The notes under the pieces are model-generated. The model was not told the DNA's origin, did no database searches, and was given only the letters and a program-made list of their open reading frames with translations. From Eubacteriales bacterium (GTDB lineage: Bacteria; Bacillota; Clostridia; Oscillospirales; CAG-272), in assembly GCA_051867915.1 (NCBI GenBank), contig JBJDZJ010000191.1, positions 5,487 through 69,486 on the forward strand: a stretch of 64,000 bases of DNA, given 5' to 3'. The position numbers were made by a program, and so were the translations under genes. Below, in pieces: positions 5,299 through 28,040 of the stretch. Numbering within the stretch: position 1 is the stretch's first letter; each line of letters opens with the position of its first letter.

Positions 5299-5330
5299 GA
5301 TCGTTTTCCTTCCTTATTTATATATTATTG

Positions 5331-6728: not shown

Positions 6729-6814
6729 AAAAATTCCTCCCGTTACTTGTCCAAACGGCATTCCCGATGAAAAGCCACGGCAAAAACAGGCCTTTTCTCC
6801 GGGCTTTTTTCTGT

Positions 6815-6843
6815 ATTTTAGCACATCCGTTTTAAAAAGTCAA
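6815..6843 (-). promoter_or_regulatory. Sigma-70-type promoter of the hexuronate operon
   Basis: Minus strand reads TTGACT-17 nt-TAAAAT (plus-strand agtcaa at 6838-6843, atttta at 6815-6820), about 85 nt upstream of the uxaC start. Confidence 0.6.
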
Positions 6844-7175: not shown

Positions 7176-7243
7176 TGGTTTGTTTGCGGGTCCCCCTACG
7201 ATTCGAATTGATTTTTTTGCATGGATGACCGGGAGGGTTTATT

Positions 7244-10200
7244 TTGAAAAAGATCGGAAAAAATTGGAAGAATACCGTGCTGGCTCTGGCACTGCTGTTG
7301 GCATTTTCCACGCTGACCGGCAGTGTCGGAAACGCATACAATACAAGCAATAATCTATCAGAGGCGCAGGAACTCTTTCGAAATGTGACGGGGCAAATGG
7401 ATTTTTCGCAGATAATGCAGGAAAATTTCAATGGCTCCGTCCTTTCGACGAGTCAGACCCGGGTGTATGAGCGCAGAACGGTCATCATCAGTCTGACCGG
7501 CGACAGTCTGTCCGATGCGGCAGACGGCGTCAGCGTCTCCGATTATGCCCAAACGGTGGCGGGCCGTGCGGAAACCCTTCGGATTTACGGGGAGCAGGAC
7601 GAGCTTCTGAATACGCTCGCCGATGCCGGAATCGACTACACCCTGAAGTACCGTTATACCGCCGTGGACAATGCGGTCGCCGTTGAAATCAACACCCGAT
7701 ATGTCAGCGAGATCCGGGAAATGGCGGGCGTCAGCAGCGTCGTTATCGCCGGCTCCTTTGCATATCCCAGGTCGGCAGACTCCGACGGTTCCTCGGCTGT
7801 CACCAATGTGACAAAGGTGTACGGAACCGGCGTCTATGACTCTTCCGACGCAGTATCCGACGGTCTGGACGGTTCGGGTATGGTGGTCGCCATCATTGAT
7901 ACCGGTCTGGACTACACCCATGCCGCCTTCAGCCTGATGCCCGACGGTGCCAATTCCGTTCGCTTTACCGAAGCCGATATAGCTGACCTTCTGGCGGATA
8001 ACGATCTTCGCGCCGAGGAGCGTCAGTCCCTTTCCGGAAACCTGCTTTCGGTAGAAGATGTCTATCTGAACGCAAAAGTTCCCTTTGCTTACGACTATGC
8101 CGATAACGATGCCGATGTCTATCCCTCCTACTCCAATCACGGAACCCATGTGGCAGGTATCGTGGCAGGTCACGACTTGAGCGGCTATACCGACAAGGAC
8201 GGCAATCATGTGGACGAAGAGTTCATCGGCGTTGCCCCCGAGGCACAGCTGGTCATCTGCAAGGTATTCACCGATGATCTGGAGGATCCCGATCTCGGCG
8301 GCGCCGTTGCAGAGGATATTCTTGCCGCACTGGAGGACTGTATCCTTCTGGGCGTGGATGTCATCAACATGAGTCTGGGTACCTCCTGCGGCTTTACCAC
8401 CACCAACGACGGCGACGATGAGGGCGAGTACATGAACCGCATCTATACCGCCATCGGCGATCAGGGCATCAATCTGGTCTGCGCCGCAAGCAACGATTAC
8501 AGCTCGGGCTACGGCGGCGTGTTCGGTACCAATCTGGCGTCCAACCCCGATTCGGGTACGGTCGGCTCTCCCGCCACCTTTGCGGCGGCTCTTTCGGTGG
8601 CCTCCATCAGCGGTAAGCAGTCCAGCTATATGCTGGGCAACGGCACCACTGCCGTGTTCTTTGAGGAGTCCAACGACGAGGACGGCAACCCCTTCGATTT
8701 TATCGCCTCCATGCTGGCGCCGGGCGAAACGACGGCGGAATTTGAATATGTCGTGGTTCCGGGCGTGGGCAGAGCATCCGATTATACTTCTGCCATCAAA
8801 CAGCTGTTTGCAGAAAATCCCAACCGCATTGCGCTGGTCAAGCGTGGCGACACCACCTTCAAGGAAAAGGTTGAGGTTGCCAAGAGCATGGGAGCCAAAG
8901 CGATCATCGTTTACAACAATGTCTCGGGTACCATCCGTATGCAGCTGGGCGAAGTGGTGGATCCCATCCCTGCGGTTTCCATTGATATGAATGTCGGAAA
9001 TGCGCTGGTTGAGGCGGCGCTGAATCATACCGCACAGGAGCTTTCCGCAGGAGCGGTCAACCGTGTGGGTACAATTACCATCAACACCTCCTACCTGGCA
9101 GGTCCCTTCATGAGCGAGTTCTCCTCCTGGGGATGCACGCCCGATCTGAAGCTCAAGCCCGAAATCACCGCCCACGGCGGAGAGATTACCTCCACTGTCC
9201 CCGGCGGATACGACGAGCAGAGCGGAACCAGTATGGCAGCCCCCAATATGGCGGGTGTGGTTGCGCTGATCCGCAGCTATGTGAAGACGAACAACCCCGG
9301 TATGACCCCTCAGGAGGTTACCCGCAGGGTCAATCAACTGCTCATGAGTACGGCCACAACGGTCTATGATGAGGACGGCCTGCCCTATTCACCCCGAAAG
9401 CAGGGTGCGGGACTTGGCAGTCTGGATAACAGCCGGACCACCGCCGCCTTCCTCTGGACCGATAATGCCGAGATCGACTACCGTCCCAAGGTGGAACTGG
9501 GGGACGACAAGGAAAAGGTCGGCGTTTACACCGTCAGCTTCAAGGTCACCAACTTCGGCACCCGCAGTCTCTCTTTCAAGCCGCAGTCCATCTTCATGAC
9601 CGAGACGCTGGCCATCGACGGACTGTCGGTAGCCGAGCAGGCATACCTGCTGGACGATGTGTCTGCCGTTTGGAAAATCAACGGAAACGAAATCGTGGAG
9701 GGGTACAGCTTTACCGTTCCTGCCGGGGTCACCACCGATGTGGAACTGACGCTGACGCTTTCCGATGCCGAGAAGAAATACATAGACGATTCCTTTGAAA
9801 ACGGTATGTTCGTCGAAGGTTTTGCCAAGCTGGTCAGCGACAGCGAGGGACAGTGTGATCTGGAACTGCCTTTTATGGGCTTTTACGGCGACTGGTCCCG
9901 GGCGCCCATGCTGGACTACGATGCCTATGAGCTGGCAGAGTATCAGCAGGATTCCTCCATACTTGAGGATGAGAAGCCTCAGGCAAGCGTGTGGGCGACT
10001 CAGCCGTATACCGTTTATTATAATGAAGACTTTGTTCTTCCCATGGGAAGCTATGTCTACCTGCTTCCCGACGATGCCGACCCTGTTTACACCTCGGAAG
10101 ATCACAATGCGCTTTCCTGCTTCAATCAGTTCTTCGGCGAGGATAATGTCGAAAACTACATGACCTCTTATAAAATGAAGGGTCTGTATGCGGGACTGCT

Positions 10201-13200
10201 CCGCAACGCCAGATCGGTGGATTATCAGCTGATCAATGCGGATACAGGTGAGATTCTGGAGAGCGACACCGTCTACCGTGTCAGCAAGGCCTACTCGGGC
10301 GGCGGTTCGGGAAGACCTGCCCTTGTGGATCTGGATCTGGATCCCCTTACCTACGGTCTGGTGTCCAACGGTCATTACACCATGACCTTCGAATTCTTCC
10401 TGGATTATGAGGACGGCAGCTGCACCAAGAATACCTATTCCTTCGACTTTACCATTGACTATGAAGCCCCCATGCTTCAGGATATCCGGGTTCGTTACTA
10501 CGACTACAAGGACGGCAACAAGACAAAACAAAGAATTTATCTGGATCTGGATGTTTACGACAACCACTATACCCAGTCTGTAATGCTCTGCTATCTGGAG
10601 GGCGAAGAGCTGATCCTTGCCACCGATTATGTAACGCCTGTCTACAATTCCAACAAGAACGGCACTACAACGGTTTCCATCGAGATCACCGATCTGTACG
10701 AGAAGTACAAGGACAGCCTGTATGTCGAGATTGATGACTATGCGCTCAATCACAGCGTTTATTGGCTCAATCTGTCTGCCGCAAACCAGGTTTCCGCCTC
10801 CGACGACTTTGAACTGGCTCCCGGTGAGGAGTCGCTGACGCTCGGCGTTTACAATACCCATACCGTCGCTCTTGCCGGAATCGGAGACGCCAATCTGTCC
10901 AACTTCAAATGGTCCTCGGACAACCGCAGTGTAGCCGATGTGAAAAACGGTGAGATTGTCGGTCTTTCCGAGGGAAGTGCAGTCATTACCGTCTCCAACG
11001 GGAAGGGTGTCAGCAGAAGCCTGACCGTGACCGTCACAGGCGGCAGTGCAACCCTGCCTACCCCCTCCATCTCCTTCGGCGTCATCAAGGACGGCGACGG
11101 AACGCTGGTGAAGGCTGCGGGCGTTGTGGAGGTCTACCCCGGAATGGACTTCCGATTGGATGTTGTCACCGATCCGTGGTACTATCCCACCGACAGCCTG
11201 ACGCTGGTCTGGGAATCCACCAATCCCGATGTGGTGACGGTGGATCAGTCGGGTAATGTCACAACCGTTGCCGAGGGAACAGCCGTGATCAAGGCGTCCA
11301 TTGCGGTGGACGGCAAAGTCACCGCATATACCGCCAATGTCACCATGAAGGTAGAGGATCCCTATGTGGTCAGCAACTACTCGCTGATCGAGTATAAGGG
11401 TCCCGGCGGCGTGGTTGTGATCCCCACCGACAAGAACATCATGATGATCGGCGAGGATGCCTTTAAGGATAACGATACCATTACCGAGGTGGTCATTCCG
11501 AAGTCGGTGACCTCCATCGGAACCGGAGCTTTTGAAAACTGTACGGCACTGAAGCGGATCTCCTTTGTGGATACCGAGGAACAGCCCATTGCCGATGCCG
11601 ATATCGGCGTCATCTACGGCAGAGCCTTTGCCGGATGTACCTCTCTTGAACTGCTGGATCTCTCCAATGTTAAGGTGGTTACTCTGGGCAGGGAATGCTT
11701 CTACGGCTGTGAAAATCTTCGTGAGATCCGGAAGATGACCAAGATCGGTACCATCGGCGCCTATGCTTTCGCCGGATGTACCTCTCTGACTTCGCTGGAT
11801 CTGTCCGAACTTCATGTGGCGGGAACCGGAGCCTTTGCCGGATGTACCGCTCTGACCGATGTGAAGACCGGCTGGTTCACCGCCATCGGAAATTCCATGT
11901 TCAGCGGATGCACCGGACTTCGCAGTGTGACGCTTTCGGCAGAATCCGTGGGAAGCCGTGCGTTCAGCTGCTGTACCGGACTTCGCAGTGTGACCGTCGC
12001 CCTTCCCGAGGGCGAGAGCGAGTTCACCTTCTACATCGGAGATCGGGCGTTTGAAGGCTGTACTGCCCTTCAGACCTTCACTGTGAACAGCGGATGCAGA
12101 ATCGCCTCCATCGGTAACTATGCCTTCGCCTCTACGGCGCTGACCTCCTTTACAATCCCCGAGGGACTGACCACGCTCGGCGTGAATATCCTGTCGGGCT
12201 CCAAGGTGACCGAAATTACCGTCGGCGACAGCTTTGATTTCGAAAATCTGAAGCTGCTCGGCACCCCCTTCTACCACATTAGTATCAAGCTCGCATCCGG
12301 AACCACCCGCTATGTCATCGAAAACGGCGTGCTGTACAACCGGAGTAAGACCACTCTTCTGATGGTTCTGCCCGGCACCACCCGTGTGACAATCCCCGAC
12401 AGCGTGACTGCCATTGCCGATTATGCTTTTGCAGGAAGTTCTGTGACTTCGCTGACCGTTCCCGCTTCGGTGCGGACCATCGGAGCAGGCGCCTTCATGA
12501 ACAGCAAGCTGGCGACCGTCACCTTCGAAGGCTCGGGTATCACCGCCATTGCCGAAAACACCTTCGCCAACTCCAAGCTGATCCGGATTACCGTCCCCGC
12601 AGGGGTTACGGTCATCGGGGACAGCGCCTTTGAGGGAACGCCCCTGACATCGGTGGATTTTGCGGGAACCTCGCTTCGGACCCTGGGCAATCGGGTCTTC
12701 GCCGACTGCGTCGAGCTGAAGTCCGTGGTTCTGCCCGACGGCATCACAACCATGGGGGACGGAACCTTCTCGGGATGCTCTGCATTGAAGAGCGCAACCC
12801 TGCCCTCGGTAAAGACGCTGGGCAGTCAGACCTTCCGTTTCTGCAACGCACTGACGGAGGTGACCTTCGGCGAAAATGCCGTCACCGTGGGAAGTTATAC
12901 CTTCTACGAGAATACCTCCCTGAAATCGGTTCACCTGAGCGACAGTATCACCGAAATCGGCGCGTACGCCTTTGTGGGATGTACCTCCCTGGAAGAAATC
13001 GACCTGAACAAGGTCACGGTCCTGAATCCTTACGCCTTTGCCGAGTGTTCCAATCTGAAGAGCGTTGTCGGTCTTGACCGCATTGTCACCGTCGGCGATA
13101 TGGCCTTCTATAACTGCAACGGGCTGACCGATCTGAACCTTCTGTCCGCCGAGGTGATCGGCGACGGAGCATTCGCAATCGAAAACGGCCAATCGGCCTA

Positions 13201-16027
13201 TACCTCCCTGTCGATTCCTGCGGCAAAGCAGATCGGCATCATGGCCTTCATCGGCGGCGGGGAAGCTACCGTGACCCTTCCGCAGGGGCTTACCTCTGTC
13301 GGATACGGCGCATTTGCGGATTCCGTGAATCTGACCGACTTCACGGTAGAGGAAGGAAATTCCGTCTTCTTTGCCGTTGACGGCGTTCTGTACCGCAGGC
13401 TTCCCAACGGTCAGTACGAGCTGACCGCATATCCCGGAGGAAAGATTGCGGAGCAGGGAAGCTACACCGTCATCGACGGCACCGCCGTTATCGCAGGATT
13501 CGCCGTAAGCGGTCTGAAGAGCGATGCCATGACCGAGGTTGTCCTGCCCTACTCGCTGAAGCTTATCGGAATTTCTGCCTTCGCCGACAGCGGAGTGACC
13601 AAATATACCTTTAACTGCATCCAGGCTCCTACACTGGCGACGGTTTACCGCGATGATGTGGAAACTTTGCTGGAAGAGAACGCAACCGGTACTCAGATTG
13701 CGATTAACGGTCTTTACTATGCCAACTTCGACACCCTGATGGCAAGCTATACCGACATTGTGGGCGAGACCAGTTCGCTTGTGATCTGCTATCCCGAAAA
13801 CGGCGTCGGCTACGACAATTATGTCTACCGCACCTATTTCGGAAAGTATGAGTCACTGGGCGTGCTGATGGACGATGTGACCCGCTCCGCTATCGAGGCC
13901 ATCGAGGCGCTGGAGTCTGCGGACACCGTCAAGGGCTGGTCGTCGCTGGAAGTCAACGACACCAACAAGGCACTGATTTCCGCCTTCGCCGACAAGGTTA
14001 AGGAAGCCCGCCGTCTGTACAACAACATCCTGACCGACGATCAGCGCGCCTTCGTATCCGATGAGCAGCTGACAAAGCTGACCGAAATCGAAGGTCTGAT
14101 GCGCTCCCTCAAGGAGAAATTCGGCATCCCGCTGATTATCAGCTCGCTGACCTACAATCAGGATTATATCAAGGATTACAAAGAGGGCGACAGCTTCTCC
14201 ATGGAGGGTCTGATTCTGACCGTCGTCTATGATGACGGCTCCACCGAGCCTGCCGATCTTGCCAATCTGATCCTGAAGACCCCCTCCGACGGCATTCTGA
14301 CTCAGTACGACCTGTTTGTGGTCTTTGATTACAGCTACGGAGACGGCATGACCAGAGAGGTTCAGATTCCCGTCACCGTCAAGGCGACCGGATCCTCTTC
14401 TCCTTCCGTTACCCCCGAAGAACCCGGAGATTCCGACGAGGATGAAAAATCCCCCGTCCTCCTGATCGTTCTGCTGGCAGGCGGCGGTGTGCTGGTATGC
14501 GCAGGCATCGTCCTTGTCATTCTGCTGATTGTAAAAAAGAAGGGCTCCGGAAAGGGCCCGGATCCCGATAAAAACGGGGCTTCCCCCGCCGGGGAAGGTG
14601 CATCCGGTGAATCGGACGGTTCGCTGAGTGCTTCACCCGTACCCAACGGAAGCGGTTCGGAAAGTCCCGATGAAGAGGGCAATCCCTCCGGAAACGGGGA
14701 CAATGCCCCCGAAAAGGAAGAGTTTGGTCCCGACCGTCAGGGGGATTCCGACATTCCCAAAAGACACCGTGCCGGTGCAATCGTCAAATGGACGGTCTTC
14801 GGCGTTGCCGTTGCCGCAGTGATCGGAGGAATTGTCTACTCGGCGGTGACCGGCGGAAATAAGGATGAATCCAAGCTGTCAGAAGTGCAGGCGCAGATCA
14901 TTTACAAGGCCAACGGCGGTCTGTTCGAGAACAACATGGACGAAAAGACCATCGGTTACAAGGACGGCGCCTATCCTCTGGACATCGGTCATGTTACCGT
15001 GACCAACGGCAGTATTGCCATCAAGCGTCAGAGTTATCTGTTTGGCGGTTGGTATTATCCCGCACTGGACGAAAACGGCAACATCCTCTATGAGGATGAG
15101 GCAAAGGGCATCGTCAAGCTCGGTGAGGCCTTCGACTTCACAAAGAAGATGACCGAAGGACAGGAGATTACCCTGTATGCCGGCTGGATCAAGGATAAAA
15201 CCCTGACCGTTCTGTTGGCAGGCGATTCCATCGTGGATAAAGACGGCGTTCAGTACAACGCCGGAGATGTCATCCGCGAACTGTCTGCCAATCCCCAGGG
15301 ACAGTTTGATAAGTATACCGGCTCCAATCTTCTGAGTCTGCCGTCCAAACAGTATACCTTTGTTCAGTACTATACCGATGCCGAGTGTACCGTCCCCGTA
15401 ACATGGCCTATCGTCACCGAAGACGGTGTGGATGCCGATCCGATCTATGCCAAATTTATCGAGGGAGACTGGAAGATCGTTTCCGATGCCGACTCGGCAA
15501 AGAAGATGCTGGAGGCGTTGATCAGCGGCAACTACTATCTGATCTGCGATGTGGATCTGGGCGGTGCTGCCGTTACCATCTCCAATAACGCCACCTTCGG
15601 CGCAAAAGTGGAGGGCAACGGATATACCCTGTCGGGCTTCAGCGTGACCAAGCGTGCAGTGGAGAGTCAGGGTACCTCCCTGTTCGGCACCCTGAAGGAG
15701 AGCGCATCTCTGCACAATCTGACCCTTACCGATGTAACCTTCGAGGTTATGCTCAAGGGTGACGCCAATGCGGTCTATTTCCTGTTCGGCGAAATGCCTG
15801 AAAATCCCGATATCAACGGATTCACGGTCAAGGGAAGCATGACTGTCAGCTGTCCTGCCGGATCATTGATCGGAAATCTTCAGGAGGGAGAGCATTCTCA
15901 CTGGATTCTGTCTGCGGCAGAGAGCGACAGCGCCGCTCTTGCCGACGGGAAGATCACGGTTGAGGTTGTTTGCACTGTGGGAGAGGCAACCTACACCTAT
16001 CCCGAACCGTCTGAATCAGACTCGTAA
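7244..16027 (+). CDS. Giant (2927 aa) cell-envelope subtilisin-like S8 serine protease with PA insert, Fn3-like, Big_2, BspA-type LRR, TM hairpin and a C-terminal Listeria-Bacteroides-repeat/GLUG-type ectodomain
   Basis: TTG start 6 nt after GGGAGGG, and a signal peptide (MKKIGKNWKNTVLALALLLAFSTLTGSVGNA). Catalytic motifs are VVAIIDTG (D219), SNHGTHVAG (H299) and SGTSMAAPNMAG (S663). Later regions are described in the sub-features below. Confidence 0.9.
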   Translation: MKKIGKNWKNTVLALALLLAFSTLTGSVGNAYNTSNNLSEAQELFRNVTGQMDFSQIMQENFNGSVLSTSQTRVYERRTVIISLTGDSLSDAADGVSVSDYAQTVAGRAETLRIYGEQDELLNTLADAGIDYTLKYRYTAVDNAVAVEINTRYVSEIREMAGVSSVVIAGSFAYPRSADSDGSSAVTNVTKVYGTGVYDSSDAVSDGLDGSGMVVAIIDTGLDYTHAAFSLMPDGANSVRFTEADIADLLADNDLRAEERQSLSGNLLSVEDVYLNAKVPFAYDYADNDADVYPSYSNHGTHVAGIVAGHDLSGYTDKDGNHVDEEFIGVAPEAQLVICKVFTDDLEDPDLGGAVAEDILAALEDCILLGVDVINMSLGTSCGFTTTNDGDDEGEYMNRIYTAIGDQGINLVCAASNDYSSGYGGVFGTNLASNPDSGTVGSPATFAAALSVASISGKQSSYMLGNGTTAVFFEESNDEDGNPFDFIASMLAPGETTAEFEYVVVPGVGRASDYTSAIKQLFAENPNRIALVKRGDTTFKEKVEVAKSMGAKAIIVYNNVSGTIRMQLGEVVDPIPAVSIDMNVGNALVEAALNHTAQELSAGAVNRVGTITINTSYLAGPFMSEFSSWGCTPDLKLKPEITAHGGEITSTVPGGYDEQSGTSMAAPNMAGVVALIRSYVKTNNPGMTPQEVTRRVNQLLMSTATTVYDEDGLPYSPRKQGAGLGSLDNSRTTAAFLWTDNAEIDYRPKVELGDDKEKVGVYTVSFKVTNFGTRSLSFKPQSIFMTETLAIDGLSVAEQAYLLDDVSAVWKINGNEIVEGYSFTVPAGVTTDVELTLTLSDAEKKYIDDSFENGMFVEGFAKLVSDSEGQCDLELPFMGFYGDWSRAPMLDYDAYELAEYQQDSSILEDEKPQASVWATQPYTVYYNEDFVLPMGSYVYLLPDDADPVYTSEDHNALSCFNQFFGEDNVENYMTSYKMKGLYAGLLRNARSVDYQLINADTGEILESDTVYRVSKAYSGGGSGRPALVDLDLDPLTYGLVSNGHYTMTFEFFLDYEDGSCTKNTYSFDFTIDYEAPMLQDIRVRYYDYKDGNKTKQRIYLDLDVYDNHYTQSVMLCYLEGEELILATDYVTPVYNSNKNGTTTVSIEITDLYEKYKDSLYVEIDDYALNHSVYWLNLSAANQVSASDDFELAPGEESLTLGVYNTHTVALAGIGDANLSNFKWSSDNRSVADVKNGEIVGLSEGSAVITVSNGKGVSRSLTVTVTGGSATLPTPSISFGVIKDGDGTLVKAAGVVEVYPGMDFRLDVVTDPWYYPTDSLTLVWESTNPDVVTVDQSGNVTTVAEGTAVIKASIAVDGKVTAYTANVTMKVEDPYVVSNYSLIEYKGPGGVVVIPTDKNIMMIGEDAFKDNDTITEVVIPKSVTSIGTGAFENCTALKRISFVDTEEQPIADADIGVIYGRAFAGCTSLELLDLSNVKVVTLGRECFYGCENLREIRKMTKIGTIGAYAFAGCTSLTSLDLSELHVAGTGAFAGCTALTDVKTGWFTAIGNSMFSGCTGLRSVTLSAESVGSRAFSCCTGLRSVTVALPEGESEFTFYIGDRAFEGCTALQTFTVNSGCRIASIGNYAFASTALTSFTIPEGLTTLGVNILSGSKVTEITVGDSFDFENLKLLGTPFYHISIKLASGTTRYVIENGVLYNRSKTTLLMVLPGTTRVTIPDSVTAIADYAFAGSSVTSLTVPASVRTIGAGAFMNSKLATVTFEGSGITAIAENTFANSKLIRITVPAGVTVIGDSAFEGTPLTSVDFAGTSLRTLGNRVFADCVELKSVVLPDGITTMGDGTFSGCSALKSATLPSVKTLGSQTFRFCNALTEVTFGENAVTVGSYTFYENTSLKSVHLSDSITEIGAYAFVGCTSLEEIDLNKVTVLNPYAFAECSNLKSVVGLDRIVTVGDMAFYNCNGLTDLNLLSAEVIGDGAFAIENGQSAYTSLSIPAAKQIGIMAFIGGGEATVTLPQGLTSVGYGAFADSVNLTDFTVEEGNSVFFAVDGVLYRRLPNGQYELTAYPGGKIAEQGSYTVIDGTAVIAGFAVSGLKSDAMTEVVLPYSLKLIGISAFADSGVTKYTFNCIQAPTLATVYRDDVETLLEENATGTQIAINGLYYANFDTLMASYTDIVGETSSLVICYPENGVGYDNYVYRTYFGKYESLGVLMDDVTRSAIEAIEALESADTVKGWSSLEVNDTNKALISAFADKVKEARRLYNNILTDDQRAFVSDEQLTKLTEIEGLMRSLKEKFGIPLIISSLTYNQDYIKDYKEGDSFSMEGLILTVVYDDGSTEPADLANLILKTPSDGILTQYDLFVVFDYSYGDGMTREVQIPVTVKATGSSSPSVTPEEPGDSDEDEKSPVLLIVLLAGGGVLVCAGIVLVILLIVKKKGSGKGPDPDKNGASPAGEGASGESDGSLSASPVPNGSGSESPDEEGNPSGNGDNAPEKEEFGPDRQGDSDIPKRHRAGAIVKWTVFGVAVAAVIGGIVYSAVTGGNKDESKLSEVQAQIIYKANGGLFENNMDEKTIGYKDGAYPLDIGHVTVTNGSIAIKRQSYLFGGWYYPALDENGNILYEDEAKGIVKLGEAFDFTKKMTEGQEITLYAGWIKDKTLTVLLAGDSIVDKDGVQYNAGDVIRELSANPQGQFDKYTGSNLLSLPSKQYTFVQYYTDAECTVPVTWPIVTEDGVDADPIYAKFIEGDWKIVSDADSAKKMLEALISGNYYLICDVDLGGAAVTISNNATFGAKVEGNGYTLSGFSVTKRAVESQGTSLFGTLKESASLHNLTLTDVTFEVMLKGDANAVYFLFGEMPENPDINGFTVKGSMTVSCPAGSLIGNLQEGEHSHWILSAAESDSAALADGKITVEVVCTVGEATYTYPEPSESDS
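7856..9343 (+). other. S8 peptidase catalytic domain with inserted PA (protease-associated) domain
   Basis: Asp codon gat at 7898-7900, His codon cac at 8138-8140, Ser codon agt at 9230-9232. The PA-like insert IALVKRGDTTFKEKVEVAKSMGAKAIIVYNN lies between His and Ser, as in lactocepin/C5a-peptidase-type enzymes. Confidence 0.85.
10795..11350 (+). other. Two Big_2-type bacterial Ig-like domains
   Basis: WSSDNRSVADVKNGEIVGLSEGSAVITVSNGKG and WESTNPDVVTVDQSGNVTTVAEGTAVIKASI are typical Big_2 signatures. Confidence 0.7.
11380..13620 (+). repeat. About 750 aa of BspA-type leucine-rich repeats (protein-level repeat)
   Basis: A reiterated ~23-aa unit, I(G/P)..AF.(G/N)C(T/S).L..(V/I).(L/I)P..(V/L)..IG, is repeated about 30 times (for example IGTGAFENCTALKRISF, IGAYAFAGCTSLTSLDL). 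Confidence 0.8.
14452..14856 (+). other. Membrane hairpin inside the giant protease: TM1, 86-aa low-complexity loop, TM2
   Basis: TM1 is SPVLLIVLLAGGGVLVCAGIVLVILLIV followed by KKKGSGKG. The loop is G/S/P/D/E-rich and ends in KRHRAGAIVKW. TM2 is TVFGVAVAAVIGGIVYSAVTGG. The positive charges flank the loop side of both helices. Confidence 0.7.
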
Positions 16028-16058: not shown

Positions 16059-18587
16059 ATGAAGAAATATTTCAAATCTGCTCTTTGCCTTCTTTGCTGT
16101 GCGGCTATGGTACTGCCTGCCGCCGCTTGTAAGAAGACGCCCGATGATACCGAGAAAACGCATCTGTATGATCCCGAAGAGTACCCGATGACCTTTGCCA
16201 TCGGTTCGCTGGACGGCAACTTCAATCCCTTCTTCTACACCTCTGCCAACGACGGAAGCGTGCTTTCCATGACCCAGATTTCCATGCTGACCACCGATTC
16301 CGACGGCAATATCGTCTGCGGTGACGATTATCCTACCGTGGCACTTGCCATGAAGATCACCATGTACGATGCGGCGGGAAATGTCACGGCAAGCGGTGAT
16401 ACCGAGGGCTATACCGATTACGAATTCGTCATCAAGAACGGCATCAAGTTCAGCGACGGCGTGGATCTGACCATCAAGGATGTGCTGTTTAATCTGTATG
16501 TCTATCTGGATCCCATGTACACCGGCTCCTCCACCATCTATTCCACCGATATTCAGGGTCTGAAGGCCTATCAGGCGCAGGATCCCTCTCTGGCGGACGA
16601 TTCGGATACCGATATCAGCAGCGGCTTTTACAGCAGCGCACAGCAGAGAGTCTACAATATGATCGACTATCTGGAGGGCGATATACCGCTGACCGCTCAG
16701 ATTACCGCCGATCTGGAGACCACCAAGAAGCTGTTCATGGAAGAAATCAGCAGTGACTGGTCCAATAACTTCGGCACGCTGGAAAGCTATACCGAATATA
16801 CCTTCACCGAGGATTGGCAGAGCTACTATCTGATCGAGGGTCTGGTTACCGTTGAGAAGGAAATCAACGCCCAGGGTGCCACCGTTTCCAAAAAGGACGA
16901 GAACGGCAAGTATGTCACCAGTCTGGACGATGTCAACGATGAGCTGACTGCCGAGATGAATGCCGCCCTGTCTGCCGACAAGGTTTCGGCATACGCCTCT
17001 GCGCATAACTGCTCCGAGGCAGACGCCAGAAGCATCCTTATGAAGGAAAAGGCCATCGCCACCGTGTACGATGCCTATACCTCCTATGAACCCTCTCTGA
17101 TCAACATCCTGAGCTACTGGGCAACCGGAAGCAATGTTCTTGACGATTTTGCGGCAGAGGCTATGTCCGCATATTACGAGAGCGTCAAGGGAACCGTAAA
17201 GTCCATTTCCGGTATCACCACCTATAAGACATCCTCCTTCGACGGTCAGGATTTCGGAGAAGAGCATGATGTGCTGAAGATCCGCATCAACGGCATCGAC
17301 CCCAAGGCCATCTGGAACTTCGGGTTCATCGTTGCCCCCATGCACTACTATTCCAACGCAGAGCAGACCGCACTGTGGGACGGCGTCAGCCACTTCGGCG
17401 TGGATTTCTGTAACAAGACCTTCTTCGATGAGGTTCTGAAGGATCCTGCCAAGAACGGACTGCCCGTAGGCGCCGGCGTTTATAAGGCTACCGACCAAAG
17501 CGGCAGCGACAATGTAACCAAGGATGGCTTCTACAATAACAACTACGCCTACTACAAGAGAAACGAGTATTTCGAGACGGTCGGCGGAGAGACCATTCAC
17601 AACGCCTATATCCGCCTGTTCCGTTACAGAGTCGTCAGCTCCGACAACATCGTCAACGCCCTTATCAATGAAGAGGTTCTCTACGGCGAACCCAACGCAA
17701 AGCAGGACAACATCGCCGCAGTCGATAAGGATTACCTGGGCTACAAGACCTACCGCACCAGCGGTTACGGTTATGTGGGTCTGAACCCCAAATACATTCC
17801 CGACATCGAGGTCAGACAGGCGATCATGATGTCCATGAACACCGCTACCATCGTAAGGGATTACTATACATCCGCACTGGCAGAGGTGATCTACCGCCCG
17901 ATGTCCAGTACTTCCTGGGCATACCCCAAGGATGCAACGGCATATTACACCTGTACCAGAGATAAGAGCGTCATTCAGGATCTGGTCAAGAGCGCAGGAT
18001 GGACGCTGAACGCCGACGGCGTGTTCGAAAAGGACGGAAAGCTGTTGGAATTCACCTTCACCATCGCCGGCGAGACTGCCGATCACCCGGCATACGCCAT
18101 GTTCCAGTCTGCCGCCGAGTTCCTCAATGAATGCGGATTCATCATCCATACCACTACCGATGTCAATGCGCTGAAGAAGCTGGCAACCGGCGGTCTGGAG
18201 GTATGGGCTGCCGCATGGTCCACCGCCGCCGACCCCGACCTGTATCAGAATTACCATAAGGATTCCAACGCCAACGCCACCAAGAACTGGTACTGCCAGG
18301 GAATGCTGGACGATACCTCCGGTCAGTTCGATCAGGAGAAGGTATGGATCAACGAGCTTGCCGAGCTGATCGAGGCGGGCAGAGAGACCAACAACCGTGA
18401 CGAGCGTACGGCGATCTATGCAGATGCTATGGACATCATCATGCAGCTGTGCATCGAGCTTCCCACCTACCAGAGAAACGATCTTGCCGTATACAATACG
18501 AGAATCATTGACGCCGGCACCCTGAATCAGAATCCTTCCTATAATGAGGGCGTTGTCAGCAGAATCTGGGATGTCAACTATAACTGA
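16059..18587 (+). CDS. ABC transporter substrate-binding lipoprotein, family 5 (Opp/Dpp-type), unusually large (842 aa)
   Basis: RBS AAGGAG 7 nt upstream. Lipoprotein signal MKKYFKSALCLLCCAAMVLPAAAC. Family-5 style segments (GIKFSDGVDLTIKDVLFNLYVYLDP, GYVGLNPKY, AWSTAADPDLY). Lies 31 nt after the protease gene with no terminator. Confidence 0.85.
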   Translation: MKKYFKSALCLLCCAAMVLPAAACKKTPDDTEKTHLYDPEEYPMTFAIGSLDGNFNPFFYTSANDGSVLSMTQISMLTTDSDGNIVCGDDYPTVALAMKITMYDAAGNVTASGDTEGYTDYEFVIKNGIKFSDGVDLTIKDVLFNLYVYLDPMYTGSSTIYSTDIQGLKAYQAQDPSLADDSDTDISSGFYSSAQQRVYNMIDYLEGDIPLTAQITADLETTKKLFMEEISSDWSNNFGTLESYTEYTFTEDWQSYYLIEGLVTVEKEINAQGATVSKKDENGKYVTSLDDVNDELTAEMNAALSADKVSAYASAHNCSEADARSILMKEKAIATVYDAYTSYEPSLINILSYWATGSNVLDDFAAEAMSAYYESVKGTVKSISGITTYKTSSFDGQDFGEEHDVLKIRINGIDPKAIWNFGFIVAPMHYYSNAEQTALWDGVSHFGVDFCNKTFFDEVLKDPAKNGLPVGAGVYKATDQSGSDNVTKDGFYNNNYAYYKRNEYFETVGGETIHNAYIRLFRYRVVSSDNIVNALINEEVLYGEPNAKQDNIAAVDKDYLGYKTYRTSGYGYVGLNPKYIPDIEVRQAIMMSMNTATIVRDYYTSALAEVIYRPMSSTSWAYPKDATAYYTCTRDKSVIQDLVKSAGWTLNADGVFEKDGKLLEFTFTIAGETADHPAYAMFQSAAEFLNECGFIIHTTTDVNALKKLATGGLEVWAAAWSTAADPDLYQNYHKDSNANATKNWYCQGMLDDTSGQFDQEKVWINELAELIEAGRETNNRDERTAIYADAMDIIMQLCIELPTYQRNDLAVYNTRIIDAGTLNQNPSYNEGVVSRIWDVNYN

Positions 18588-18666: not shown

Positions 18667-19740
18667 ATGTTTAAATATATTTTGAAACGAATTCTGTTAT
18701 CCCTTTTTATCCTGCTGGGCGTGTCGTTCATCCTGTATGTTCTGCTGAGATGTATGCCGCTTTCCTATGTGGAAACCAAGTTCTACGGGAGCAATCCCAA
18801 TGCACAGGACAACTATTCGGTCCTGCATCAGGAGCTTGCCGACTGCGAACTGGTGGAATCGGATGAAAACGGCCTGCCCATTTACGAAACGGATGAAAAC
18901 GGAGAGGTCCTTCTTGACGAGAACGGAATCCCCGTTCCCAAGAGCATGCCCATTCTCAAGGGCTATCTCTCCTGGCTGGTTTCCTGTTTCAAGGGCGATC
19001 TGGGAAATTCCTGGAAGTACGGCAGACCGGTAGGCGATGTGATCTTCGAAAATATGGGCGTATCCTTCATGATCGCCTTCATTTCGCTGATTCTTGAGCT
19101 GATTATCGCCATTCCGCTGGGTATCAAGAGCGCCTGCAATCAGTACGGCAAGCTGGATTACACGGTCACCGTTCTGACCATGATCGGAATTTCCTTCCCC
19201 AGCTTCTTCTTCGGAAGCCTGATGATTAAATTCTTCTCGGTGGAACTGGGATGGTTCCCCAGCACCGGCATTTCGTCCTCCTGGATTACCGAGAACACCT
19301 CCACCTTTACCATCATTACCGATATGGCGTGGCATCTGGTTCTGCCTATCTTCGTCATGGTGGTGCTGTCCATCGGATCGGTCATGCGGTATACCCGTAC
19401 CAATACGCTGGAGGTGCTGAACGCCGATTACATCCGCACGGCAAGAGCCAAGGGTCTTTCCGAAAAGAAGGTTATCTATAAGCATGTTTTCCGTAACACC
19501 ATGATTCCTCTGGTCACCATGCTCGCCGGAACCCTTCCGGGTCTGTTCGGCGGTGCCATGATTACCGAGACCATTTTCAGTATTCCGGGTATCGGAAAGG
19601 CGGCTTACGACGCCCTGTCCGCAGGTGACATTCCCTTCGTCATGGGCTACAATATGTTTATTGCCGTCCTGACCGTTGCCGGAATCCTGCTGACCGATAT
19701 TATGTACGCCGTCGTTGACCCCCGTGTCAAGCTGTCCTGA
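18667..19740 (+). CDS. ABC transporter permease (OppB/DppB-type) with enlarged first external loop
   Basis: N-terminus MFKYILKRILLSLFILLGVSFILYVLL, an EAA-like region RTARAKGLSEKKVIYKHVFRN and 6 TM segments. The extra loop contains three DENG motifs. Confidence 0.85.
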   Translation: MFKYILKRILLSLFILLGVSFILYVLLRCMPLSYVETKFYGSNPNAQDNYSVLHQELADCELVESDENGLPIYETDENGEVLLDENGIPVPKSMPILKGYLSWLVSCFKGDLGNSWKYGRPVGDVIFENMGVSFMIAFISLILELIIAIPLGIKSACNQYGKLDYTVTVLTMIGISFPSFFFGSLMIKFFSVELGWFPSTGISSSWITENTSTFTIITDMAWHLVLPIFVMVVLSIGSVMRYTRTNTLEVLNADYIRTARAKGLSEKKVIYKHVFRNTMIPLVTMLAGTLPGLFGGAMITETIFSIPGIGKAAYDALSAGDIPFVMGYNMFIAVLTVAGILLTDIMYAVVDPRVKLS

Positions 19741-19758
19741 CGGGAGGAGGTATTCTGT

Positions 19759-20877
19759 ATGGATGAACAAAACAACAACCTTCCGACCGAGGATGGGGTT
19801 CAGATCAACAGCGACGCCGCCTGCGCAGGCGAAACCGAGGAGGAGACCTTCGTCACTGTTGAGGATGAGCTTCACGGCGAAAATCTCAACGACCGTGTGA
19901 AGGTTCTTTCACCCGGAATGACCATTGCCAAACGGTTTTTCCGCTCCCGTCTGTCGGTGGTGGGACTGGTGATTCTGGTTCTGCTGTTCCTGTTTTCCTT
20001 CGTGGGACCCCTTCTTTCCCCATGGGGCGAGATGGAGGTGGATGAAACCCCCACAGAGGTTATCAGCACCCTGCCCATCGAATATACGGTGGTCGTAAAC
20101 GGCGAAGAGGTCGTTCAGACTGCCTATGATGTGAACATCAGCATGACCGAGAACAATGTCAAGGGCAAGATCAGCGCAAAGCATTGGCTGGGAACCGATG
20201 AAACCGGCAAGGATCTGCTGACCAGACTGATGTACGGCGGCAGAATTTCGCTGACGCTGGGTCTGATCGTCGTGATTCTGGAGACCATTCTGGGCGTGAT
20301 TCTGGGCGGTATCGCCGGATATTTCGGCGGTTGGGTCGATCAGCTGATTATGAGAGTGGTGGATATCCTCTACTGTATCCCTCAGCTGCCCATTATGCTG
20401 ATTCTGTCGGCGACCTTTACCTCGCTGGGCATCGTGACCATCACCCGTCTGTATCTGATGATGGGCATTCTGACGCTGATCAGCTGGACGGGAATCGCCA
20501 GACTGGTCAGAGGCCAGATCCTGTCCCTGCGGGAGCAGGAATTCATGCTGGCGGCAAAATGCAGCGGACTTTCGGTTCGCAGAAAGATTTTCAAGCACCT
20601 GATCCCCAATGTCCTGCCTCAGCTGATCGTATCCATGACGCTGGGACTGGGCTCCATTATCCTGACCGAGGCAACGCTGGGATTCCTGGGACTGGGCGCA
20701 CCTTTGGGTACGGCAACCTGGGGATCGCTGATCAACTACGCAACCAAGACCGAATACCTGACCAACTATTTCAATTTCTGGGTTCCGCCCGGAATCTGCA
20801 TCACCCTTGCCATCCTCGCCTTCAACTTCGTGGGCGACGGACTGCGGGACGCATTTGATCCGAAGGCGAAGAGATGA
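19759..20877 (+). CDS. ABC transporter permease (OppC/DppC-type) with an acidic ~50-aa N-terminal extension
   Basis: RBS GGGAGGAGG. Motifs HWLGTDETGKDLLTRLMYGGRISL and AAKCSGLSVRRKIFKHLIPN are typical of the OppC class. Confidence 0.85.
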   Translation: MDEQNNNLPTEDGVQINSDAACAGETEEETFVTVEDELHGENLNDRVKVLSPGMTIAKRFFRSRLSVVGLVILVLLFLFSFVGPLLSPWGEMEVDETPTEVISTLPIEYTVVVNGEEVVQTAYDVNISMTENNVKGKISAKHWLGTDETGKDLLTRLMYGGRISLTLGLIVVILETILGVILGGIAGYFGGWVDQLIMRVVDILYCIPQLPIMLILSATFTSLGIVTITRLYLMMGILTLISWTGIARLVRGQILSLREQEFMLAAKCSGLSVRRKIFKHLIPNVLPQLIVSMTLGLGSIILTEATLGFLGLGAPLGTATWGSLINYATKTEYLTNYFNFWVPPGICITLAILAFNFVGDGLRDAFDPKAKR

Positions 20878-20887
20878 GATTCTTCCG

Positions 20888-20915
20888 GGATAACCGCATA
20901 GGAATGCGGTTATCC
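20888..20915 (+). promoter_or_regulatory. Intra-operon stem-loop between the permease and ATPase genes
   Basis: Perfect 11-bp stem GGATAACCGCA / TGCGGTTATCC with a 6-nt loop and no T-tract. Confidence 0.5.
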
Positions 20916-20932
20916 GCCAAAATCGGAGACTT

Positions 20933-22231
20933 TTGAAGAAAGGTATGTTCAATCGTATGGCAAAACAGAAATCAAGTCAATCTCATTATATCTCTCACTC
21001 GGAGTCCAAGCGGATTGCTGCCGAGAACCGTGCCGCCTACCGTCGGTATCAGGCAAGGAAAAAGCTGAAAATCGCCGAAAAGGACTATCTGACAAAGATG
21101 AAGGATCCGGCAAACCTTGTGGAATTCGAGGATCTGCATACCTATTTCTATACCGATGCCGGAACGGTCCGTGCCGTCAACGGCGTGACCTTTTCGGTAC
21201 CTGAAGGGGCTACCGTGGGAATCGTGGGCGAGTCGGGATGCGGAAAGAGCGTCACCTCGCTCTCCCTGATGCAGCTGGTCATGGGACCCTCGGGGCAGAT
21301 CGTGTCCGGTTCCATCCGCTTCCGCACCAATGCCTTCAAACGGGATGCCAAAGGGCGGAAGATCCCCGTATACAGTGGGGACGGTTCCAAAAAGCCGCTG
21401 AAAAATGAGTTCGGAGGCACCCTCTACGAGATGGAGGAGAAGGTCTACGACATAGCAAAGATGCCCCTGTCCGCTATGCAGAGCATTCGGGGACGGGAGA
21501 TCGCCATGATCTTCCAGGAGCCGATGACCTCCCTGAACCCCGTGTTCACCGTGGGAAATCAGCTGGATGAAGTGGCACTGCTCCACATTGAGGGCATTTC
21601 CAAGCAGGCGGCAAAGGAAAGAAGCATCGCCATGCTGGAGAGAGTCGGAATTGCCGATCCGGCGGGCGTATACGAAAAGTACCCTCACGAGCTGTCGGGC
21701 GGTATGCGTCAGAGAGTCATGATCGCCATGGCGCTGATCTGCTCCCCCAAGCTGATCGTGGCGGACGAACCCACCACAGCGCTGGATGTGACCATTCAGG
21801 CGCAGATTCTCGATCTGCTGCGGGAGATCAAGGAAAAGCAGAAGAGCTCCATTATGCTCATCACCCACGATCTGGGCGTCGTTGCCGAAATGGCAGACTA
21901 TGTGGTGGTCATGTATGCGGGCAAGATCATCGAAATGGGCACCACCGAGGATATTTTCGACCATCCCATGCATCCTTATACCATCGGTCTGCAAAAGAGC
22001 AAGCCGTCGGTCAGCTCGGATGTGGAATCGCTGTACTGTATTCCCGGATTCGTTCCCAATCCCATCAATATGCCCAATTACTGCTACTTCCGGGATCGCT
22101 GTGACAAATGCAAAAAGGAATGCGCCGGGAAATATCCCGATCTGATCGAAATTACAAAGACCCATAAGGTGTCCTGCTATCTGTATGCAGACGGGCAGAA
22201 CCGGGAGAAGGGGGAGTCCGGCAATGGATGA
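20933..22231 (+). CDS. ABC transporter ATP-binding protein (OppD-type) with N-terminal extension and internal insert
   Basis: Walker A GESGCGKS, signature LSGGMRQR, Walker B LIVADEPTTALD and the oligopeptide C-terminal motif HPMHPYTIGL. The start is uncertain: TTG at 20933, ATG at 20945 or ATG at 20957. Confidence 0.85.
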   Translation: MKKGMFNRMAKQKSSQSHYISHSESKRIAAENRAAYRRYQARKKLKIAEKDYLTKMKDPANLVEFEDLHTYFYTDAGTVRAVNGVTFSVPEGATVGIVGESGCGKSVTSLSLMQLVMGPSGQIVSGSIRFRTNAFKRDAKGRKIPVYSGDGSKKPLKNEFGGTLYEMEEKVYDIAKMPLSAMQSIRGREIAMIFQEPMTSLNPVFTVGNQLDEVALLHIEGISKQAAKERSIAMLERVGIADPAGVYEKYPHELSGGMRQRVMIAMALICSPKLIVADEPTTALDVTIQAQILDLLREIKEKQKSSIMLITHDLGVVAEMADYVVVMYAGKIIEMGTTEDIFDHPMHPYTIGLQKSKPSVSSDVESLYCIPGFVPNPINMPNYCYFRDRCDKCKKECAGKYPDLIEITKTHKVSCYLYADGQNREKGESGNG

Positions 22232-23303
22232 AAATCAGATTCAAACGGTCAGAACCGAAAAGGAAGCCCCTCTTCTGGAGGTTCGACACCTGAAAAAATA
22301 TTTTCCCGTCAAGACCAGCCTGACCGGGAAGCCGCTGTCCCTTCTGAAAGCGGTGGACGATGTCTCCTTTACGCTGGAAAAGGGCAAAACCCTCGGTATT
22401 GTGGGAGAGTCGGGATGCGGAAAGACCACCATGGGTCGGACGCTCTTAAGGCTTTATCCCATTACCGACGGTCAGATCTTTTTCAAGGGACAGGAGGTCT
22501 CCAAGATCTCCAACCGGGAGTTCAACAAGCTCCGTCCCCATATGCAGATGATCTTCCAGGATCCCTATGCCAGCCTGTCCCCCCGTCTGACGGTGGGCGA
22601 GATCATCGGCGAGGCGGCACTGGAGCACGGACTGGTGGATAAGGCGCACTATCGGGAGTATGTGCTGGAGATCATGAGAATGTGCGGCCTTCAGCCCCAT
22701 TACTACGAACGATATCCCCATGAGTTCTCGGGCGGTCAGCGTCAGAGAATCTGCATTGCCCGTGCGCTGGCGCTGAAGCCCGATCTGGTGATCTGCGACG
22801 AGCCGGTGTCGGCTTTGGATGTGTCCATTCAGGCGCAGGTTATCAACATGCTGAAGGATCTGCAAAAAAAGCTGGGTCTTGCCTATGTTTTCATTTCCCA
22901 CGATCTGTCGGTGGTCAAACACATTTCGGACGATGTGGGAGTCATGTATCTGGGGTCGCTGGTGGAGTACGGCAGTAAGGCGCGGATTTTTGAAAATGCC
23001 CTGCACCCCTACACCAAGGCGCTCTTTTCGGCAGTGCCTGTCCCCGATCTCCATGTGAAGAAGGAGCGGATTGTGCTGAAGGGCAGTATTCCGTCTCCGG
23101 TCAATCCCCCTGCGGGATGCAAATTCCATACCAGATGCGATCACTGTATGGAAATCTGCAAGAGCGTTCCCCCTGTCTACCGGGAGGTGGAGGAGGGTCA
23201 CTATTGCGCCTGCCATCTCTATGATGAGATGCCTGCCAAAACGGCAGAAACGGTTGAAAATGCAGAAACAACGGCTGAAAAGCCCACCCATACCGAAGAA
23301 TAA
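22224..23303 (+). CDS. ABC transporter ATP-binding protein (OppF-type)
   Basis: Walker A GESGCGKT, signature FSGGQRQR, Walker B LVICDEPVSALD and HPYTKALFSAVP. The ATG at 22224 (MDENQ) overlaps the upstream stop (ATGGATGA) and follows GGGGGAG. The track start at 22185 is rejected. Confidence 0.85.
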   Translation: MDENQIQTVRTEKEAPLLEVRHLKKYFPVKTSLTGKPLSLLKAVDDVSFTLEKGKTLGIVGESGCGKTTMGRTLLRLYPITDGQIFFKGQEVSKISNREFNKLRPHMQMIFQDPYASLSPRLTVGEIIGEAALEHGLVDKAHYREYVLEIMRMCGLQPHYYERYPHEFSGGQRQRICIARALALKPDLVICDEPVSALDVSIQAQVINMLKDLQKKLGLAYVFISHDLSVVKHISDDVGVMYLGSLVEYGSKARIFENALHPYTKALFSAVPVPDLHVKKERIVLKGSIPSPVNPPAGCKFHTRCDHCMEICKSVPPVYREVEEGHYCACHLYDEMPAKTAETVENAETTAEKPTHTEE

Positions 23304-23651: not shown

Positions 23652-23759
23652 ATAGATCTACCCCTCAATGGGAGGGGACCGGATTGCGAAAGCAATTGAT
23701 TTCGGATAGAGAAACGGGTTGTTCCATCCGGTGACTGAAGAAAGGTGTGGACAATACAC

Positions 23760-27965: not shown

Positions 27966-28040
27966 GGACCTAAGAGAAAGGTGAATCATAGATCGGATCA
28001 TTCCGACCCGAAACTGATCTGCAAGAAAGGAAGAACAAGA

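Follow-up and report, generated by a model that had tools for sequence, protein, structure and literature searches.

A probable in-frame fusion of a giant cell-envelope subtilase gene to the gene for an importer-associated extracellular protein in Clostridia

In a stretch of 64,000 nucleotides (nt) from an uncultured gut bacterium of the Eubacteriales (GenBank assembly GCA_051867915.1, contig JBJDZJ010000191.1, positions 5,487 to 69,486 of the forward strand; hereafter "the window," whose own numbering is used throughout), a single open reading frame (ORF) on the plus strand (7244-16027) encodes a predicted S8 protease of 2927 amino acids (aa) that continues past its own membrane anchor into a second extracellular domain, here called ectodomain 2. 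In our view this ORF probably arose when two neighboring genes of a conserved clostridial locus were truly fused in frame: the stop codon, the intercistronic hairpin, and the start codon present in relatives with two genes are all missing in the window. The first gene would have encoded a giant cell-envelope subtilase (S8, PA, Fn3, Big_2, and BspA-type leucine-rich repeat [LRR] regions) with a C-terminal membrane anchor, and the second a membrane-anchored extracellular protein of about 400 aa heading the operon of an Opp-type ATP-binding cassette (ABC) importer. The product is probably a single polypeptide with two domains outside the cell. A sequence-only reading of this stretch had proposed that a membrane-anchored protease gene was fused in frame to a signal-anchored gene downstream of it; the proposal is borne out by relatives in which the two genes are separate and the junction is homologous.

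RESULTS

One open frame runs through a transmembrane hairpin into a second ectodomain

Hydropathy analysis of the 2927-aa protein yields only three transmembrane (TM)-like peaks, corresponding to an N-terminal signal peptide and two internal segments, TM1 and TM2. TM1 (aa 2403-2430; 14450-14533; Kyte-Doolittle value, 2.85) is a predicted stop-transfer anchor; its homologue in three related loci with separate protease genes, L001, L009, and L039, is the C-terminal anchor of the protease. Two other proteins of the window, a GH92 protein ending at 59822 and a 1258-aa protein ending at 46433, terminate in a TM segment plus poly-Lys, as the sequence-only reading had observed; here, as it had also observed, the frame stays open past TM1 and KKKGSGKG. 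The loop that follows (86 aa; 14534-14791; predicted to be cytoplasmic) opens with KKKGSGKG and closes with PKRHRAGAIVKW. Residues G, S, P, D, and E make up 63% of it, compared with 35% of the whole protein; it has no Met, its middle is acidic and of low complexity, and it includes EEFGPDR, QGDSDIPK, and a long NGASPAGEGASGESDGSLSASPVPNGSGSESPDEEGNPSGNGDNAPEK. Across these 258 nt both other frames carry several stop codons, leaving one frame open. TM2 (aa 2517-2539; 14792-14860; Kyte-Doolittle value, 2.12) comes directly after PKRHRAGAIVKW, ends in ..YSAVTGG with no lipobox Cys, and leads into ectodomain 2 (aa 2540-2927, 388 aa; 14861-16027 with the stop codon). Composition and hydropathy thus agree with the Met-free loop, basic patch, and second TM segment described earlier.

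The charges around the hairpin fit the earlier assignment, by the positive-inside rule, of both large parts to the outside and of the loop to the inside. Each membrane-proximal end of the loop has four basic (K+R) and no acidic (D+E) residues, whereas the ratios in the outer flanks are 1/7 and 2/3, and basic loop ends with acidic outer flanks recur in all seven fused proteins examined. Because ectodomain 1 carries a signal peptide and ectodomain 2 is a secreted lipoprotein in relatives, we infer that N-out, loop-in, C-out is the only consistent topology. The signal peptide would send the polypeptide through Sec, TM1 would stop transfer, the disordered loop with its basic ends would remain in the cytoplasm and be free to vary, and TM2, a former lipoprotein signal peptide that lacks the Cys, would restart export of the last 388 aa. 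TM2 is thus a candidate former N-terminal signal anchor that now serves as an internal re-export signal, and the outcome would be a protein with a two-TM hairpin that displays both large domains on the outside, ectodomain 2 being fixed 1:1 beside the protease.

The fused frame recurs in relatives and appears to be under selection

The exact 2927-aa protein is also called in an independent Logan assembly (SRR30616829) and is present at NCBI as MGM9681891.1, a "leucine-rich repeat protein" of a Eubacteriales metagenome-assembled genome (MAG). A scan of a genome collection with one genome per species gave 34 loci (L004 to L037), and in six of them (L004, L005, L006, L007, L008, and L010, all MAGs of different projects) the frame runs from the S8 domain through TM1, the loop, and TM2 to ectodomain 2, with lengths of 2844 to 2965 aa. 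Fusion is seen as well in P0011 (2867 aa), a Logan assembly sequence, and in the fragment P0010; a metagenome scan returned solely distant lipoprotein forms and no additional fused members. A fused variant, P0160 (2919 aa), is 95% identical to the window protein; the only indels between the two, of 7 and 1 aa, lie in the loop, where identity is 78%, compared with 97% in S8 and in ectodomain 2. L004 is 83 to 93% identical to the window, and its loop indels of 15, 42, 3, and 27 nt are all multiples of three.

The ratio of nonsynonymous to synonymous substitution rates (dN/dS; Nei-Gojobori estimates for the window-L004 pair) is 0.07 for S8, 0.05 for TM1, 0.21 for TM2, and 0.14 for ectodomain 2, as opposed to 0.76 for the loop. 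These comparisons indicate that the frame of the fused gene is maintained by selection. No in-frame ATG, GTG, or TTG occurs in the window from the end of TM1 to eight residues into TM2; ectodomain 2 is under purifying selection without a canonical start of its own and is therefore predicted to be translated within the long ORF.

Other relatives keep two genes separated by a homologous spacer

The comparison with orthologues that the sequence-only reading had called for, one gene or two, finds both forms within one clade. In L001, L009, and L039 to L041, a stop codon follows TM1 and RKK.., and a spacer of 73 to 100 nt with a hairpin, a ribosome-binding site (RBS), and ATG precedes a downstream gene of 409 to 433 aa, whose N terminus (basic patch, KW, TM) aligns with the TM2 region of the window. 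L001, the genomic context of the protein P0002, illustrates this layout: the upstream gene, an orthologue of the giant protein, ends in a TM segment plus RKKGSKDSE and a stop codon, and the 96-nt spacer holds the hairpin, then the RBS and ATG. The layout of L039 to L041 is represented on 14 contigs by P0014. The spacers (L001:3862-3957, L009:9871-9985, and L039:5913-6000) are homologous to one another, with a TAA stop at the same position relative to TM1, a strong stem-loop in an equivalent place, and the RBS GGGAGAC(A/G)ATCGCAAATG. Folding z-scores for the stem-loops range from -3.6 to -5.2; the stem-loops differ in stem sequence and lack a U-tract, and their role may lie in intercistronic processing, in stability, or in attenuation. 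Coupling of the two genes is tight in sister groups, with the genes overlapping as ATGA in L014, L016, and L021 and lying 2 nt apart in L017, and fusion would therefore be mechanically easy.

One apparent stand-alone gene was rejected. P0001 (414 aa, from L003) lies on a 1692-bp contig that starts 26 nt before an internal Met, and its sequence is identical to part of the 2898-aa fused frame of L006 (compared at 9880-10130); gene calls on short contigs can thus mimic a stand-alone gene. Separately, a single in-frame stop codon in the LRR region of L017 (2475-10010) splits the giant protease into 1676 and 834 aa; the gene may be a pseudogene or truly split, or the stop may be a sequencing error.

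The protease part resembles cell-envelope subtilases

The frame begins with a TTG codon (7244-7246) 6 nt 3' of the Shine-Dalgarno sequence GGGAGGG (7231-7237). The predicted Sec-type signal peptide (aa 1-31; 7244-7336) is composed of MKKIGKNWKN, a hydrophobic core, and ..VGNA, with cleavage predicted before the following Y. The S8 catalytic domain (aa 210-723; 7871-9412; Pfam PF00082, E = 2.7e-41) has a PA domain inserted within it (PF02225, aa 519-588). Its triad motifs are intact (DTG at aa 219, HGTH at aa 299, and GTSMA at aa 661), and by these Asp-His-Ser motifs the ORF is predicted to encode an active S8 protease. Next comes an Fn3-like domain (fn3_5, PF06280; aa 758-878; 9515-9877), a type of domain that succeeds the protease domain in cell-envelope subtilases. 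Farther along lie a Big_2 bacterial Ig-like region (10892-11503; PF02368, two stretches), collinear across all relatives, and a BspA-type LRR region (11504-13693; PF13306, six LRR_5 stretches), likewise collinear in relatives, whose match is above threshold (459 bits, E = 1e-139). A membrane-proximal stalk (13694-14449), ending in an acidic Ser/Pro linker and 46 to 83% identical to that of close relatives, completes ectodomain 1.

The best NCBIfam match, NF040553 (SGO_0316/SGO_0317 LPXTG serine peptidases), spans the S8, PA, and Fn3 core (aa 116-901) but reaches only 237.5 bits against a cutoff of 1400, and no LPXTG-type motif ([LIVS]P.[TSA]G) is found over the whole 2927-aa protein. With its predicted signal peptide and C-terminal stop-transfer anchor, the protease part looks like a type I protein; the earlier term "tail-anchored" is loose for such a protein.

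Ectodomain 2 belongs to a widespread family of lipoproteins

An exhaustive search of 1.84 billion representatives detected 594 homologues of ectodomain 2. The best 150 of these are 396 to 575 aa long, except for the two fused sequences P0011 and P0010, and in more than 30 distant relatives ectodomain 2 is a separate lipoprotein gene of about 400 aa. When the last 631 aa served as a homology query, all proteins retrieved were 373 to 475 aa long and covered TM2 and the C-terminal part; P0003 to P0009 start with lipoprotein signal peptides, and P0001 and P0002 with a basic patch, KW, and a TM segment. In alignment, TM2 matches the signal anchors in P0001 and P0002 and, in P0003 to P0008, the lipoprotein signal peptides. 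The Cys of the lipobox L-[AS]-[GA]-C is present in P0003 to P0008 and in the distant loci checked, wherever the N terminus is present, whereas Gly or Ser takes its position throughout the clade of fused and split forms; TM2 therefore appears to descend from a lipoprotein signal peptide that turned into an uncleaved anchor.

The AlphaFold2 model of ectodomain 2, built from a 9-sequence alignment, shows an all-β fold after TM2 with a predicted local distance difference test score of 79.8. In a Foldseek search of the PDB, no match reached an E value of ≤0.001; a local match to the InlB B-repeat (2y5p) had a probability of 0.97 and a TM-score of about 0.57 (target normalized), the putative IgA1 protease 3n6z and pectate-lyase β-helices matched faintly, and matches to SpyCEP-type structures were weak and below significance. 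A profile search of the PDB gave solely InlB (E = 0.13) and no solved relative. Flg_new (PF09479; TIGR02543) matches seven of nine family members (best E = 2.3e-10), Pectate_lyase_5 three of nine, and Peptidase_M26_N two of nine; NCBIfam holds no curated model for ectodomain 2, in which neither a catalytic signature nor a peptidyl-prolyl isomerase match was found. From the model and these matches, ectodomain 2 would comprise two β-grasp modules of the Listeria-Bacteroides/InlB B-repeat type and a β-rich, possibly β-helix-like C-terminal part.

These results bear on two domain assignments made from sequence alone. For the two Listeria-Bacteroides repeats, the window copy scores just 17.7 to 18 bits against a cutoff of 27, and the assignment draws its support from the seven matching family members and the Foldseek match to InlB. 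The GLUG-type module was not recovered: Pfam gives no GLUG match in the window protein or in family members, and tblastn across the window with ectodomain 2 finds only ectodomain 2 itself and not the 1258-aa protein that the earlier reading had also labeled GLUG.

The importer accompanies ectodomain 2 with or without the protease

All importer genes of the window lie on the plus strand. The fused gene is followed after 31 nt by a family 5 solute-binding lipoprotein gene (SBP_bac_5; 16059-18587), whose product of 842 aa is unusually large (830 to 930 aa in the relatives L004 to L036; best Pfam stretch, aa 461-738). The Opp/Dpp-type ABC importer itself (18667-23303; BPD_transp_1, OppC_N, ABC_tran, and oligo_HPY in Pfam) consists of two permeases (18667-19740 and 19759-20877; BPD_transp_1 in both and OppC_N in one) and two ATPases (20933-22231 and 22185-23303; oligo_HPY tail). 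Related loci have the same importer gene order, and at every locus with downstream sequence, the ectodomain 2 gene is immediately followed by an SBP_bac_5 homologue and Opp-type permeases. Of the 34 genome-collection loci, about 18 encode a collinear S8-LRR giant protein upstream; it is absent in, for instance, L011, L012, L015, L018, and L031 (Lachnoclostridium phytofermentans); the SBP_bac_5 lipoprotein adjoins the ectodomain 2 gene even in such protease-free loci. Gene order thus indicates that the importer is the invariant partner of ectodomain 2 and that the protease is a frequent upstream addition, fused in one clade.

In L026, a Eubacteriales MAG, an S8 homologue (18716-20740) lies about 8 kb downstream of the ectodomain 2 and importer genes rather than upstream.

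One polypeptide or two

The strongest competitor of a single polypeptide, which we nonetheless regard as unlikely, is that one ORF gives rise to two proteins through proteolysis in the loop, through a signal-peptidase cut after TM2 that either releases or re-anchors ectodomain 2, or through noncanonical internal initiation. It draws on the derivation of TM2 from a cleavable lipoprotein signal peptide and on the small residues after TM2 (..YSAVTGG), as well as on the disorder and near neutrality of the loop, which are those of a functionless spacer. Internal initiation is plausible for L006 and L008, which keep GGGAG and ATG in the loop; in the window, GGGGGA is followed 7 nt on by an in-frame ATT (14738-14760). 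Against it, the clade-wide loss of the lipobox Cys excludes Lgt/Lsp processing, and the window lacks a canonical start. The internal promoter that the sequence-only reading had asked about did not appear either: no promoter-like or terminator-like site lies on the plus strand within the loop. In addition, a cytoplasmic protease could hardly find a site in loops of only 5 aa (L007) or 13 aa (L005), and repeated independent fusion would be selectively pointless, though harmless, if the parts were always separated.

We therefore retain the single, doubly exposed polypeptide as the probable product, with several points weighing against it or against a protease-centered view of its role. Hydropathy and the positive-inside rule are the sole basis of the topology. 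Cleavage in the loop, or by signal peptidase after TM2, might turn the product back into two proteins, and GGGGGA-N7-ATT may act as a noncanonical, weak start. L006 and L008, and perhaps L007 and L010, retain a plausible internal RBS and start codon, from which their downstream part could be translated on its own as well. Neither structure nor profiles point to a function for ectodomain 2, and it shows no catalytic signature. Finally, ectodomain 2 and the importer occur together in protease-free loci; the transporter rather than the protease may therefore be its primary partner.

Several fusions from a two-gene ancestor are favored

In a neighbor-joining (NJ) tree built on the 1023 columns of the giant protein that are shared, all fused taxa and three split lineages (L001, L009, and L039) form one clade with 100% bootstrap support, within which fused and split forms intermingle. 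L006 and L008, both fused, group together, as do the split L001 and L009 with the fused L010, the fused P0011 with the fused L005, and the window with L004, both fused; the split L039 joins the fused L007 with 90% support. Neither length nor sequence relates one fused junction to another, with loops of 5 aa in L007, 13 aa in L005, 23 aa in L010, 47 aa in P0011, 86 aa in the window, and 115 aa in L004, and a 27-aa loop among the lengths too. The junction of L006 and L008 is the split layout minus the tail, the stop codon, and the hairpin; the frame now runs through the RBS and ATG, which are translated as ENG(R/S)QS(K/Q)M. Split, fused-with-relic-RBS, and fully fused stages are thus all extant among the relatives. 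Because the junction sequences are unrelated and the split spacers are homologous, several independent fusions from a two-gene ancestor are favored by these comparisons.

In the loop of L004 (9990-10040), a Shine-Dalgarno-like GAGGGAGAT stands about 9 nt before the KKRH codons, without a start codon. This element and the GGGGGA of the window may be what is left of the downstream gene's RBS.

The reverse course, in which the ancestor of the clade was already fused, L001/L009 and L039 split again, and the window preserves an old state, seems to us quite improbable. On the NJ tree it is slightly more parsimonious, requiring one fusion and two fissions (three events) rather than four to five fusions, and the split genes of the clade have a nonlipoprotein KW+TM anchor and long cytoplasmic tails that resemble loop halves. 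However, the split loci belong to two subclades and share a homologous spacer, which independent fissions would not recreate; the fused junctions are unrelated to one another; and the outgroups have two genes, often overlapping as ATGA. The weakest alternative, an assembly or sequencing artefact in which a lost stop codon or an indel in one contig joined two real genes, might be entertained since split relatives exist and the low-complexity loop is where errors are likelier, but it is made extremely improbable by the identical gene in a separate assembly, by P0160 with its in-frame indels, by L004, the five MAG loci of other projects, and P0011 (in all at least seven further fused lineages), by the absence of the downstream gene's own RBS and start codon as well as of a stop codon, and by the single frame that is open over 258 nt. 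Independent fusions of two neighboring genes thus remain the account that we prefer.

Other genes of the window

Directly upstream of the protease gene and divergent from it lie genes for UxuA (mannonate dehydratase) and UxaC (glucuronate isomerase) on the minus strand (4252-6824), a pair also present in the independent assembly L038. A 1406-aa lipoprotein (23745-27965) with only a weak DUF5640 match adjoins a 959-aa lipoprotein (27981-30860) that has a CarboxypepD_reg/Big-like N-terminal part and an AhpC/TSA-redoxin (thioredoxin-fold) domain and would be an unusual extracellular redox protein. The 1258-aa surface protein (42657-46433) has a signal peptide and a TM segment with the ending RKKSKKMK; it gave no Pfam match at an E value of ≤0.001.

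DISCUSSION

Fusion of neighboring membrane protein genes has precedent, and the form described here, protease-hairpin-ectodomain, is a variation on a known theme. In Bacillus subtilis, SecD and SecF are fused as SecDF. As in that case, adjacent membrane protein genes are separate or fused depending on the lineage, and both ectodomains are kept outside; unlike the polytopic, transporter-like SecDF, the protein described here would have a minimal hairpin of two helices linking a type I to a type II part, and its first ectodomain comprises about 2370 aa of enzyme and adhesin modules. The case documents such a minimal junction, and a full-text literature search returned no description of the locus, of the ectodomain 2 family, or of a TM hairpin linking a protease to a second ectodomain.

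The closest functional parallel comes from lactic acid bacteria, in which PrtP (lactocepin) and the lipoprotein PrtM feed the Opp importer. PrtM is a PrsA-like foldase; PrtP is LPXTG anchored and lacks a BspA-LRR block, and we know of no fusion of the two. The window shares with this system a large S8 subtilase at the cell surface, whose catalytic domain carries a PA insertion and is followed by an Fn3-like domain, a neighboring gene for a small membrane-anchored extracellular protein, and a linked oligopeptide ABC importer. Ectodomain 2, however, is unrelated to PrtM and would have a Flg_new/β-helix-like fold, and the window protein differs from PrtP in being TM anchored without LPXTG, in carrying a BspA-LRR block, and in being fused to the accessory protein. 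The S8, PA, and Fn3 core (aa 116-901) has its best NCBIfam match, far short of the cutoff, in the streptococcal C5a peptidase/SpyCEP/SGO_0316 family, from which the window protein departs by lacking LPXTG and by adding about 1500 aa of Big_2, LRR, and stalk, and then the TM hairpin and second ectodomain. The six LRR_5 stretches recall BspA-like LRR surface proteins, although the LRR block is internal to a protease here and not a stand-alone adhesin. Similarly, the β-grasp modules proposed for ectodomain 2 are like the Listeria InlB B-repeat, but unlike those of internalins they would be joined to a β-rich C-terminal part, in an importer-associated lipoprotein family.

What the fusion might do for the cell can be approached only speculatively. 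The protease and ectodomain 2 could cooperate at the membrane, in front of a peptide importer that takes up the products of the protease; ectodomain 2 could be an accessory substrate- or partner-binding module of the importer, so that fusion would tie the protease to the site of uptake; and repeated fusion could reflect a physical or functional partnership. In its boldest form, a surface machine in which a giant LRR protease is held at an Opp-type importer by an unrecognized family of accessory receptors, marked by repeated fusion, the idea is tentative, and from the sequences at hand we would sooner doubt it than adopt it. Bacteroidota have coupled systems of surface hydrolysis and uptake; if such a machine existed, it would be a Gram-positive, protein-degrading counterpart of them, and the loop could also contact the transporter or be regulated.

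For annotation, the finding is a warning that the "leucine-rich repeat protein" of NCBI combines a protease with a second surface protein that evolved separately. For the family, the fusion is a "Rosetta stone": it predicts that, in gut Clostridia, a widespread, uncharacterized family has a giant cell-envelope protease and an Opp-type importer as its working partners.

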